A stretch of 32,000 bases of DNA from Candidatus Brocadia sp. (lineage in GTDB: Bacteria; Planctomycetota; Brocadiia; Brocadiales; Brocadiaceae). Of this stretch, positions 15,829 to 17,877 are shown one piece after another. Under the pieces are notes generated by a model, which saw only the letters and a program-made list of their open reading frames with translations, was not told where the DNA came from and did no database searches. How positions within the stretch are numbered: position 1 is the stretch's first letter; every line of letters starts with the position of its first letter. Both the position numbers and the translations under genes were made by a program. Location of the stretch: contig CP091279.1 of the NCBI GenBank assembly GCA_021650915.1, forward strand, positions 1,710,001-1,742,000, in the 5' to 3' direction.

Positions 15829-16452
15829 CTACTTCAATGCCATGGCCAGGACTAAAGGCATCATATTAGAAGAATCACCTGTGCCGCCCCCCAGACCGCC
15901 TGGCATCATTGCCATCAGCGCAAAGATAAGGAAGAAGCTATCATCCTTCTTATACGTTGTAGTCTGTATAGGCATAGGCGTAGGAGTAGCACCCGTTGCA
16001 GGGACTGGAGTGATACTTTCTATCTGCGGCGGCTTGGTAAGAAGTAATGGCAGGATTGACATCATTGACATCTGCTGCGTTTGTTGCTGCCCTTTCTTCA
16101 GGGTTGCATCAATCGCGTTAACCTTTTTATCCAGCATGCTGGTATTTTTGTCTAATGTTTCGTCCACCTTTTTGATAGCCGTCCTTAATTCCTTCGCCAG
16201 ATTATCCACCGACTCCCTCGTCGCGACGGGTTTTTCAAATTTGAACTGTGCCCGTCCAGCCGGAGTATTGATACTACCTCCCTTTAAACCCCCTACTCTG
16301 CGTGAAGGTAGCCTGGTTGCCCGTCCCCTCCTGTACCTTGGATATCGAGCTTCACCGAATGTTTCCTCCCATTTTTCCGTATCATCTTCAGTTTCCAAAA
16401 GTGCCTCGTCATCTTCAAAAACTTCCAAATCATCTTCTTCTAAATACGGCAT
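15829..16452 (-). CDS. Hypothetical 207-aa protein (operon gene C): poly-acidic N-terminus, Arg-rich RYPRYRRGR motif, coiled coil, P/T linker, hydrophobic Gly-rich C-terminus
   Basis: The ATG lies 2 nt after the stop of the upstream gene, and AAGGAGG sits inside that gene's last codons, which suggests translational coupling. The antisense 210-aa ORF (15842-16474) is Ser-rich low complexity and has no ribosome site. Confidence 0.7.
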   Translation of the reverse strand: MPYLEEDDLEVFEDDEALLETEDDTEKWEETFGEARYPRYRRGRATRLPSRRVGGLKGGSINTPAGRAQFKFEKPVATRESVDNLAKELRTAIKKVDETLDKNTSMLDKKVNAIDATLKKGQQQTQQMSMMSILPLLLTKPPQIESITPVPATGATPTPMPIQTTTYKKDDSFFLIFALMAMMPGGLGGGTGDSSNMMPLVLAMALK

Positions 16453-16454
16453 AA

Positions 16455-16973
16455 TTACACCTCCTTTTGGTTAATGTTCGTATGCTGACTTTTAGCATTG
16501 ACCTTCGTCTCCGCGCCTGAATCCGCCGGAACGCCTTGCTCCTTCCCCCTAAATAAGCGGAGTTTGCGAACCGCCGGAAGCACATATTCAACGAAGGCGC
16601 TTGTGTTCGGGACATACGCACCCGGAACACCTTTTCCATTACATATTTCACACCCCACGTCTTCCCCCCAACAGTACGGACACGCGCCGAGGGCAGAAGC
16701 AAGGGCATCATTTTTTTCCATTAAAACCATATTCTCATGCTTTAGCTGTTTGTATCTGCCAATGATCCTCTTAAGTTTTATTTTCTCTTCTTCGGCAGGT
16801 ATGCGCTTATCCTGCGGAGGGTTTTGATGTTTCATGAATTCCGCAAGCATTTGAAGCCGGGGGTCAGAAATACCCATTTGATTCAGCATGTCTACGATAT
16901 TCATAGAATTTGCCGGTGAATCATTATTTGTACGAGAAGGGCTATGCTCGTTCATTAATCTTTCTCCTGTCAT
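16455..16973 (-). CDS. Hypothetical 172-aa protein (operon gene B): coiled coil followed by a CxxC-x6-CxxCxGxG zinc-knuckle
   Basis: Motif ALGACPYCWGEDVGCEICNGKGVPG is encoded at about 16626-16690. An alternative start is the ATG at 16955 (AGGAGA 7 nt upstream). Co-oriented and tightly coupled to gene C. Confidence 0.7.
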   Translation of the reverse strand: MTGERLMNEHSPSRTNNDSPANSMNIVDMLNQMGISDPRLQMLAEFMKHQNPPQDKRIPAEEEKIKLKRIIGRYKQLKHENMVLMEKNDALASALGACPYCWGEDVGCEICNGKGVPGAYVPNTSAFVEYVLPAVRKLRLFRGKEQGVPADSGAETKVNAKSQHTNINQKEV

Positions 16974-17016
16974 CCATTTAATAGGTAATTACACGGAAAC
17001 TAATTTATTAATACTA

Positions 17017-17877
17017 CTAATAACGACCCCTGTATCTTCTGTATCTCGATCTGGGGTAACGGCGGAATGCGCTTCCATAACGGCGCCGTGAGCGGGGGCG
17101 ATTTTCTAACAAACCGGCTTCCGACAACCACTCTGTAAGAGACTCTCCTTCATCATCATCCGTTTCTGCAGGGTAATCTTCGTGCAGTTGTTCTAGCAAA
17201 ATCTGAGCTCGTTCTTCCGGCACTGCAGGATCGCACAGGAAATTCCCTTGCTTATCTAAAAGGTAGCTGGGGGTTCCCTGGGAATCTTCTCTCGCATTAG
17301 CCTCTGCTGCAGCTTGATTAGCCAGGGTAGACAGCGCATTCATAAATGACCCGAAAGGGGCTGATGCACCCTGCTGGCCTACCGGCACCGTGCCGCGTCC
17401 GGCCTTCCCTAATACCTGACCGAGTATACTTTGGAGGAGTGCAGGATTTTGTAAAAATGACATGAGTTGTGAAACTGCCGGAGAACCCCCGCCGAGAACC
17501 TGCGATAGCTGGCCTCCTATTGGTTTCCCTGGTGCACCTCCTAAGGCTTTACCGGCTAATTTTCCTACCGCGCCGCCGATGGCGCCTCCAACAGGGCCAC
17601 CAAGTGCAGTACCGAGGACTGGAGCGGCTACAGGGAGGACTTTTGAAGCAACTCCTGCAACGCTCTTTCCAATTTTACCCAGTGTGCCCCAAAAACTCTC
17701 AATCTCCTCAGGTGACATCCCCGAAAATACATCCTCCAGCAGGGCATTGATATCTTCGGGATCAAGATCACGGTATTCCGGAGCCAGGACATTACGAATC
17801 GTCTCATAATAAGAGTTGTCAAATCCTTCGTCCATATCTTCCAGCCAGACCTCCGTATAGTCATCACGATCATCCAT
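17017..17877 (-). CDS. Hypothetical ~286-aa protein (operon gene A): acidic N-terminus, long glycine-zipper-like hydrophobic core, acidic segment, extreme Arg/Tyr-rich C-terminal tail
   Basis: I prefer the ATG at 17877 (AAAGGAGGA 4-5 nt upstream) to the track's TTG at 17901. Core: GKSVAGVASKVLPVAAPVLGTALGGPVGGAIGGAVGKLAGKALGG. Tail: RPRSRRRYGSAFRRYPRSRYRRYRGRY. Confidence 0.7.
   Translation of the reverse strand: MDDRDDYTEVWLEDMDEGFDNSYYETIRNVLAPEYRDLDPEDINALLEDVFSGMSPEEIESFWGTLGKIGKSVAGVASKVLPVAAPVLGTALGGPVGGAIGGAVGKLAGKALGGAPGKPIGGQLSQVLGGGSPAVSQLMSFLQNPALLQSILGQVLGKAGRGTVPVGQQGASAPFGSFMNALSTLANQAAAEANAREDSQGTPSYLLDKQGNFLCDPAVPEERAQILLEQLHEDYPAETDDDEGESLTEWLSEAGLLENRPRSRRRYGSAFRRYPRSRYRRYRGRY

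Follow-up and report, generated by a model that had tools for sequence, protein, structure and literature searches.

The window analyzed here is a 32,000-nucleotide (nt) stretch of a Candidatus Brocadia sp. genome (assembly GCA_021650915.1, contig CP091279.1, positions 1,710,001 to 1,742,000, forward strand). It carries three consecutive genes on the minus strand (here referred to as A, B, and C), followed by gene D, a giant hydrolase gene headed by an S8 protease domain (E), a small open reading frame (ORF), and a second giant. A to D and the S8-headed giant form a conserved and apparently undescribed five-gene module, and the charge dipole of protein C, an acidic block followed by an arginine block, is the feature that defines the C family. 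An original prediction made from the letters of the window had proposed a recurrent grammar in which A and C pair acidic/aromatic tracts with a common RYPRxR arginine motif and tracts of similar style form the linkers of E. All of the peptides that it quoted from A, C, and E proved to be exact translations from the minus strand at the positions given, and the charge blocks are real; the shared motif and the parts of the grammar assigned to A and E turned out to be local or compositional. The features of the five genes are as follows.

17017..17877, minus strand: gene A, 286 amino acids (aa) from an ATG at 17877; an uncharacterized family with a helical N-domain, a glycine zipper, a helical C-domain, and charged tails.
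17803..17877, minus strand: N-terminal acidic/aromatic tract of A (aa 1-25), MDDRDDYTEVWLEDMDEGFDNSYYE, an exact translation.
17536..17661, minus strand: glycine-zipper segment of A (aa 73-114), from the homologue alignment.
17119..17166, minus strand: C-terminal acidic tract of A, ETDDDEGESLTEWLSE, with the conserved amphipathic LTEWLSEAGL motif, from translation and alignment.
17020..17100, minus strand: Arg/Tyr tail of A (aa 260-286, net charge +13), a clade-specific extension.
16455..16973, minus strand: gene B, 172 aa, coiled coil and zinc ribbon CPYCWGED-x2-CEICNGKG (nt 16629-16682).
15829..16452, minus strand: gene C, 207 aa; disordered charge dipole, beta-hairpin, long helix, and Gly-rich hydrophobic C terminus, from an AlphaFold2 (AF2) model and the family alignment.
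16357..16452, minus strand: acidic/aromatic block of C, aa 1-32 (core aa 5-26, net charge -14).
16288..16353, minus strand: Arg-rich block of C, aa 34-55 (core RYRRGRATRLPSRR, +7), containing RYPRYR.
15832..15936, minus strand: C-terminal hydrophobic, Gly-rich segment of C, FFLIFALMAMMPGGLGGGTGDSSNMMPLVLAMALK.
15305..15793, minus strand: gene D, 162 aa; N-terminal amphipathic region conserved, C-terminal domain variable.
9698..15249, minus strand: S8-headed giant hydrolase E, in two ORFs (14233-15249 and 9698-14188) owing to a frameshift.
13121-13219 and 12224-12340, minus strand: acidic linkers of E.

Protein B provided the marker for comparison. Its zinc-ribbon motif (LxxALGAC..CWG...CE.C.G.G.PG) is invariant across four phyla, and its maximum KD19 hydropathy is 0.72. 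Using this motif, we retrieved 42 loci from a one-genome-per-species collection and assigned their A, B, C, and D genes with profiles. A C gene is present in 37 non-redundant loci, and in every one the acidic block of C stands before the basic block. The medians for the acidic stretch are 22 aa and a charge of -13, a median of 4 residues separates it from the basic block, and the junction is sharp, typically ...[DS]E(A)/RRR, with the slash marking the boundary. The charges of the two blocks scale with each other (Spearman 0.82, n = 35 loci) with a slope of 0.6, the acid always outweighing the basic charge. An exhaustive profile search of 1.84 billion representatives yielded 288 C clusters, and among 131 full-length representatives clustered at 50% identity the correlation was 0.855, with an acid block present in 125 and acid followed by basic in 100. 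Very large pairs, reaching -39/+19 and -35/+26, are seen in Pirellulaceae, Marinicaulis, Acidimicrobiales, Chloroflexia, and Chitinophagaceae, and the large expansions are independent in Planctomycetota, Alphaproteobacteria, Actinomycetota, Chloroflexota, and Bacteroidota.

The composition of both blocks is distinctive. The basic block is 87% Arg by the R/(R+K) ratio (0.87, against 0.35 in the Lys-rich remainder of the protein). It lacks amphipathic character and in many cases consists of Arg alone (up to R14); the window protein shares its PRYRR form with a subclade of deltaproteobacteria and Gemmatimonadaceae. The Asp/Glu block is studded with Tyr, Phe, and Leu, and Tyr, Phe, and Trp account for 31% of its non-acidic residues. 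In the AF2 model the predicted local distance difference test score (pLDDT) is below 50 over residues 1-33 and 51 to 55 over residues 31-50. Behind the Arg block lie a conserved hairpin, a 59-residue helix, and a C-terminal domain, a coiled-coil part of ~150 aa in all. The C terminus is conserved as GGLGGG..DSSNM..L.LAL and has a KD19 hydropathy of 1.54 (family median, 1.12), with no classical transmembrane helix; C weakly matches tail-anchored coiled-coil proteins. Opposite gene C, a low-complexity, Ser/Val/Cys-rich ORF of 210 aa runs on the plus strand (15842-16474), and the same shadow ORF is also seen opposite C in the Thermodesulfobacteriota locus L001; most likely it only mirrors the biased coding strand and is no gene.

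The original prediction had called for an analysis of disorder and charge pattern. Residues 1-57 of C have a kappa of 0.47 (z = 5.5) and residues 228-286 of A a kappa of 0.52 (z = 6.6), with 0 of 2,000 shuffles as high in either case; opposite charges are thus segregated far beyond chance, and both regions are unstructured and of low confidence in the AlphaFold models. The proposed RYPR(S/Y)R motif fared differently. When the Arg-rich segments of A and C were shuffled, any shared 4-mer arose in 42% of trials, and a shared 4-mer followed by x and an identical residue in 9%. Of the 74 A homologues, only the three closest (each with 73% identity or more) contain RYPR, as do 14 of the 173 C homologues, and the A and C profiles showed no homology to each other (hhalign probability, 0.6%). 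On these grounds we rejected RYPRxR as a genuine shared motif; judged by such comparisons, its identity between A and C is a by-product of composition.

The A family comprises at least 74 clusters in Planctomycetota, Thermodesulfobacteriota, Acidobacteriota, cyanobacteria, Actinomycetota, and Alphaproteobacteria. Its conserved core runs from an N-terminal helical domain (LAPEYxxLxxExIE...SPEExExFW) through an invariant glycine zipper and a Pro-rich linker to a second helical domain with a terminal amphipathic aromatic motif; the AF2 model is helical with a pLDDT of 67. In the zipper, G94 and G105 are invariant and GGPxGxAIGG nearly so in the homologue alignment. Its Pfam matches are recurrent (C19orf12 in 14 of 35 members, Gly-zipper_Omp in 5 of 35, and MccV in 3 of 35) and all below gathering scores, with best E values of 1e-3 (C19orf12) and 4e-4 (Gly-zipper_Omp). 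Maximum KD19 hydropathy is 1.48 in the window protein, with a family median of 1.43. The N-terminal tract (model pLDDT <50) carries an xEAWLE-type motif found only in the Brocadia-proximal half of the family, and the net charge ahead of the APEY motif is -5 or lower in 22 of 57 homologues. To a protein of Brocadia sp. UTAMX2, A of the window has an identity that rounds to 100%, with one residue different. This lone difference lies at residue 268 (17074-17076), within the low-complexity Arg tail, and reads Gly in the window (RRRYGSAF) and Arg in UTAMX2 (RRRYRSAF). In L001, gene A (9784-10702) is frameshifted into a 63-aa N-terminal ORF and a 253-aa ORF.

An acidic/aromatic C-terminal tail (charge of -4 or lower over the last 25 aa) is present in 48 of the 74 A homologues, for example ...EYDEYDLADAYEED, and includes a conserved amphipathic motif, xTEWFxEAGL or YDEhDLxDLY. 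The Arg/Tyr tail that follows this motif in the window protein (model pLDDT ~50) was found in only 7 of 74 (P0001-5, P0007, and P0010: Brocadia relatives, P0007, and one from Thermodesulfobacteriota), which removes it as a feature of the family; among the loci, it occurs only in Brocadia (the window and L005) and in L001. It is an add-on of Brocadia and Thermodesulfobacteriota that recreates the acid-then-Arg dipole at the C terminus of A. The charge of the acidic tail of A did not correlate significantly with the Arg block of C (rho = 0.19), and we discarded a pairing of the two. The proposal that acidic tracts neutralize or dock the Arg segments is therefore upheld within C, by the invariant order and the co-scaling, and not between A and C: the failure of the A tail to track the Arg block of C favors coupling within C.

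The many A proteins that have an acidic/aromatic tail and no adjoining Arg block indicate that this type of tract can work alone. This, together with the conserved amphipathic motif in the A tail, speaks for two independent motifs: the Arg block would be a constitutive anchor to a polyanion (nucleic acid, polyphosphate, lipid, or a wall polymer), and the acidic/aromatic block would dock a folded partner (B, D, or the S8 prodomain) in the manner of an acidic activation domain, with no masking. We consider this arrangement unlikely, as it leaves the adjacency, the fixed order, and the size co-scaling of the C blocks unexplained.

The acidic linkers of E were compared across 33 giants, namely E of the window and the S8 giants of 32 other loci. 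Acidic tracts at both positions were found in the two Brocadia loci only, the Pyrinomonadaceae locus L043 has one tract, and the other 30 giants have none, including that of L001, although its A protein carries an Arg tail. The suggestion that the linkers are written in the style of the A and C tracts thus stands for the two Brocadia loci and, with one tract, for L043, and a family-wide grammar is ruled out; the absence of the tracts from most giants marks the linkers as lineage-specific spacers. For them, neutral drift is plausible. Extended to all of the tracts, drift would make them slippage-prone spacers without specific function, an account that fits the wide variation of block lengths among lineages as well as the lineage-specific E linkers and A tail. 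For C, it conflicts with the order kept in every locus, the sharp junction, the co-scaling across phyla, and the 87% Arg content of the block in an otherwise Lys-rich protein, and we regard it as extremely improbable.

The third option of the original prediction, assembly of a complex, would have the acidic/aromatic block of one C (or A) molecule bind the Arg block of another copy, so that a head-to-tail polymer or condensate scaffolds the module and concentrates the giants. Such pairing in trans would suit the high kappa of both regions, and Arg in preference to Lys, combined with Tyr/Phe-rich acidic blocks, makes a classical cation-pi sticker pair. The long helix in the C model is typical of oligomeric coiled coils, co-scaling of the blocks is equally expected, and the Arg tail of A and the acidic linkers of E were both added in Brocadia. 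We nevertheless judge assembly in trans to be rather unlikely: the acidic tail of A does not covary with the Arg block of C, L001 combines an Arg-tailed A with a giant that lacks acidic linkers, and the excess of acid over basic charge in C means that net-negative ends should repel each other.

The enzymatic partner of A to D is better conserved than the linkers. Of 46 loci, 44 have an S8 head behind D, the exceptions being a truncated 2.6-kb contig and L041, in which ~6 kb downstream of B contains no S8 match. The head is the best-conserved part of the giant, and its closest Protein Data Bank (PDB) sequences are CspB, CspC, and CspA (4i0w and 6mw4; E value of ~1e-17), at the domain level only; the corresponding NCBIfam scores are 64 bits for CspBA, against a cut-off of 1250, and 63.5 bits for CspC, against 675. 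Behind the head the giants are polymorphic, pairing PG_binding_1 or OmpA with M15, SLT, Amidase_2/3, or phospholipase D domains. In E itself, the Csp-like subtilase is accompanied by PG_binding_1, the two acidic linkers, and a region in which a lipase-like GxSxG motif was read by eye. The giants lack a signal peptide and begin with a conserved acidic N terminus, MDPxLxE..., without a hydrophobic region. A conserved, uncharacterized domain (PSPASIFDxFA...FEVVAxPG...GDMIVRRALGEGxLAH, also PSPASIFDxFA...GDMIVRRALGEG) lies inside E and again at the N terminus of the second giant, in its first ~110 codons; giants of 23 loci contain it, and it has no Pfam model. The 2,774-aa giant of L001 is listed with a weak match to Phage_T4_gp19. 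In the window, the S8 gene is frameshifted at 14190-14340, where HAAGQLSPG/KNIPS... (the slash marks the break) should continue as ...PGQKHTLTWWTNKAD in another frame, and in another Brocadia metagenome-assembled genome (L005) the giant is intact, with an uninterrupted ORF of at least 1,594 aa. The frameshift in the window is either a real pseudogene or an assembly error.

Orthologues of D from six or more lineages (Calothrix, Chloroflexia, Deinococcus, Pseudonocardiaceae, Nannocystis, and Eremiobacteria) contain PASTA domains which, to our knowledge, face the cell wall in all characterized proteins (PBP2x and PknB types). A clear transmembrane helix is present in only some D orthologues, and D of the window has a maximum KD19 hydropathy of 0.96.

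The module is widespread. The A-B-C order was found in 42 loci from more than 10 phyla, with hosts among Planctomycetota, Desulfobacterota, Acidobacteriota, cyanobacteria, Chloroflexota, Bacteroidota, Gemmatimonadota, Myxococcota, Actinomycetota, Eremiobacterota, and Proteobacteria (including Pseudomonas indica), and one copy is located on a Deinococcus plasmid (L046, plasmid 2). Between Brocadia and Thermodesulfobacteriota (L001/L006), alignment identities are 63% for B, 72% for C, and 55% for D, unusually high across phyla. Together, the cross-phylum similarity and the plasmid copy suggest horizontal transfer of the whole module.

Three further features of the window lie downstream of the module or may regulate it.

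9285..9677, minus strand: small conserved ORF, 130 aa, between the two giants, with a homologue at the equivalent position in the Acidobacteriota locus L003 and in L009.
4297..9252, minus strand: second giant hydrolase, with M15 peptidase and DUF2272 (Pfam and NCBIfam).
21414..22772, minus strand: sigma-54 enhancer-binding response regulator, the probable regulator of the module, with an insertion sequence (IS) element and a DUF3467 gene between it and the module.

No family was assigned to the small ORF. Regulators are encoded there in other loci as well: a sigma-54 enhancer-binding protein is encoded directly upstream of A in L001, L003, L031, and L043, and a Streptomyces antibiotic regulatory protein (SARP) regulator directly upstream in Chloroflexia. 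Sites resembling the sigma-54 -24/-12 promoter occur upstream of A in 7 of 36 loci, compared to 4% of shuffles; these loci include L027, L031, L022, L024, L025, and L034, and in L027 (Planctomycetota) the site TGGCACGCTCATTGCA, ~235 nt upstream of A, is a perfect sigma-54 consensus. A search upstream of A in the window found no such promoter. The IS element there is an ISH6-family transposase split in two ORFs (203 and 196 aa; 18812-20043, minus strand), and its position between activator and module may have uncoupled the operon from its regulator. The DUF3467 protein (94 aa, also PHROG 7919; 18445-18729, minus strand) is encoded just upstream of A and was not at the corresponding position in the other loci inspected. 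The minus strand at 2075-4179, downstream of the second giant, encodes an unassigned 324-aa protein, for which tblastn gave no match in the other loci, and an astacin-like metalloprotease that has a PPC domain.

We compared A to D with known families and systems. Nothing was found for them in Pfam, NCBIfam, PADLOC, or PDB sequences, and they have no relatives among viral contigs or phage genomes (IMG/VR and INPHARED). The A model has no fold match in PDB or BFVD, the confidence of the C model was too low for a structure search, and profile searches of A and B against PDB sequences returned coiled-coil noise only. PHROG matches were limited to weak tape-measure ones caused by the Gly-rich region, and a phage or prophage origin was ruled out on the basis of these results. 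A defense system was likewise ruled out: no PADLOC model fits A to D, and the sole match is a weak "subtilase" for the S8 head. Four further candidates were rejected. For a twin-arginine translocation (Tat) signal peptide, the Arg blocks of C precede polar sequence rich in Pro, Gly, Ser, and Thr and follow 20 to 60 acidic residues. For a type VII secretion substrate, no EccC/EssC-type ATPase is present among the called genes of L001 to L004 and WXG100_2 matched 1 of 35 A proteins (E value of 0.1); the S8 head matches mycosin with an E value of ~1e-4 (22 bits against a cut-off of 279). For a bacterial gasdermin with its protease, PADLOC gave no match for A to D, and the A model is helical without a PDB match. 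For a ribosomally synthesized and post-translationally modified peptide precursor, the proteins are oversized and modification enzymes are absent. In the full-text literature, we found no description of the module or of a natural bacterial acid/poly-Arg switch.

Our preferred interpretation, held tentatively at a probability of roughly 0.42, is that C is an envelope-associated accessory protein whose disordered Arg segment masks itself, and that unmasking, possibly by the S8 protease, activates the A-D module for the giant hydrolases. The acidic/aromatic block would fold back on the Arg block and, by way of electrostatic and cation-pi contacts, mask it in cis. Once free, the Arg block would bind a polyanion, most plausibly anionic phospholipid or another phosphate-rich polymer of the envelope or cytoplasm. 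Unmasking might come about by competition or, most economically, by cleavage at the junction by the co-encoded S8 protease, whose near-constant presence makes protease activation of C plausible. It would switch C, and hence the A-D module, to an active state that lets the signal-less giants reach or attack the envelope of the producer or of a neighbor, akin to a holin/endolysin pair or a protease-activated pore.

Several points weigh against this interpretation. The mechanism, as we infer it, goes beyond the sequence statistics. A and C have no classical transmembrane helices (median maximum KD19 of 1.43 and 1.12), which makes action at a membrane uncertain. In three of the 37 loci (L019, L035, and L046), the only basic block is weak or distant, and an Arg block may thus not be essential. 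The block-charge correlations carry no phylogenetic correction, and co-scaling fits intermolecular pairing equally well. Given the S8 frameshift and the IS element between regulator and module, the Brocadia copy may be decaying, unless the frameshift is an assembly error.

The nearest known relatives of such a mechanism resemble the module only in part. Synthetic activatable cell-penetrating peptides join polyGlu to polyArg through a linker (PMC2903386). C shares with these, and with precursors in which an anionic propiece precedes a cationic peptide, an acidic block fused to a size-matched Arg block and an available S8 protease. It differs from them as a natural and predicted intracellular bacterial protein that starts with the acidic block and has no signal peptide; its Arg block stays on a conserved 150-aa domain, and its acidic block is rich in aromatics rather than pure polyGlu. 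A preference for Arg is typical of membrane-translocating sequences. Taken literally, the first option of the original prediction would make C and A antimicrobial precursors, with the S8 protease freeing their Arg-rich peptides as membrane-active antibacterials and the acidic block serving as the propiece. The charge layout, the co-encoded protease, and the antibacterial-type enzyme domains on the giants are compatible with such a role. It is contradicted by the lack of a signal peptide or transporter, by the non-amphipathic and often pure poly-Arg character of the block, by the ~90% of the A family that lack the Arg tail, and by the conserved coiled-coil protein that continues behind the Arg block of C without a stop codon, where a small released peptide would be expected. 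We consider a literal precursor very unlikely, and the interpretations offered in the original prediction as a whole are supported in part.

Type 10 secretion and phage-type lysis cassettes combine a holin, a peptidoglycan hydrolase, and a spanin, as in Serratia ChiW/ChiX (PMC4259817) and Yersinia entomophaga (PMC10847048). The module resembles them in its signal-less peptidoglycan hydrolases, M15-type peptidases included (the PG_binding_1, M15, and DUF2272 giants), in the small, non-enzymatic, partly hydrophobic or coiled-coil proteins encoded alongside, in tight transcriptional control, and in very large cargo proteins. Unlike them, it has no match to a holin, spanin, or endolysin family and no phage homologues, and its hydrolases are giant, polymorphic, and S8-headed. 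With no classical transmembrane helix in A or C (maximum KD19 of 1.48, 0.72, 1.54, and 0.96 for A to D), the proteins are not holin-like, and with no N-terminal lipobox in A to D, and no Cys at all in D, they are not spanin-like.

In clostridial germination, the subtilisin-like CspB activates the cortex hydrolase pro-SleC. The S8 head of the module is closest to CspB, CspC, and CspA, is tied to a PG_binding_1/SleB-like wall-binding domain and lytic enzymes, and lacks a signal peptide, as in the Csp-SleC system. Here, however, the head scores far below equivalog cut-offs, protease and hydrolases are fused in one giant with no separate pro-SleC, the hosts are mostly non-spore-formers (Brocadia, Acidobacteriota, cyanobacteria, Pseudomonas, Bacteroidota, and others), and A to D have no counterpart in germination. 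For A, the GGPxGxAIGG...G segment and its recurrent sub-threshold matches recall glycine-zipper membrane proteins (C19orf12, Gly-zipper_Omp, Rick_17kDa_Anti, and microcin V), but all of the matches fall below curated cut-offs and A has two extra conserved helical domains without a PDB or BFVD match. A bolder and improbable extension of our preferred interpretation would make A-B-C-D-S8 a new, widespread machine that releases or activates giant, polymorphic, signal-less hydrolases directed against cell wall and lipids, its trigger being a natural activatable cell-penetrating peptide in which the S8 protease cuts the acidic/aromatic mask off a poly-Arg segment that then engages the membrane.

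These data describe four co-conserved proteins, A to D, that are present in more than 10 phyla and have no family, structural match, or literature. Their partners are giant enzymes with a protease head and with peptidoglycan hydrolase, phospholipase D, and lipase-like domains (the last read by eye); these enzymes have no export signal, and the route by which such giants reach their substrates touches on interbacterial antagonism, programmed lysis, and non-classical secretion. The hosts include the culturable Pseudomonas indica and Niastella soli, which makes the module directly testable. The acid-to-arginine dipole of C, in which the blocks co-scale, provides an unusually clear natural case of a putative sequence-encoded charge switch and would offer a simple experimental handle.

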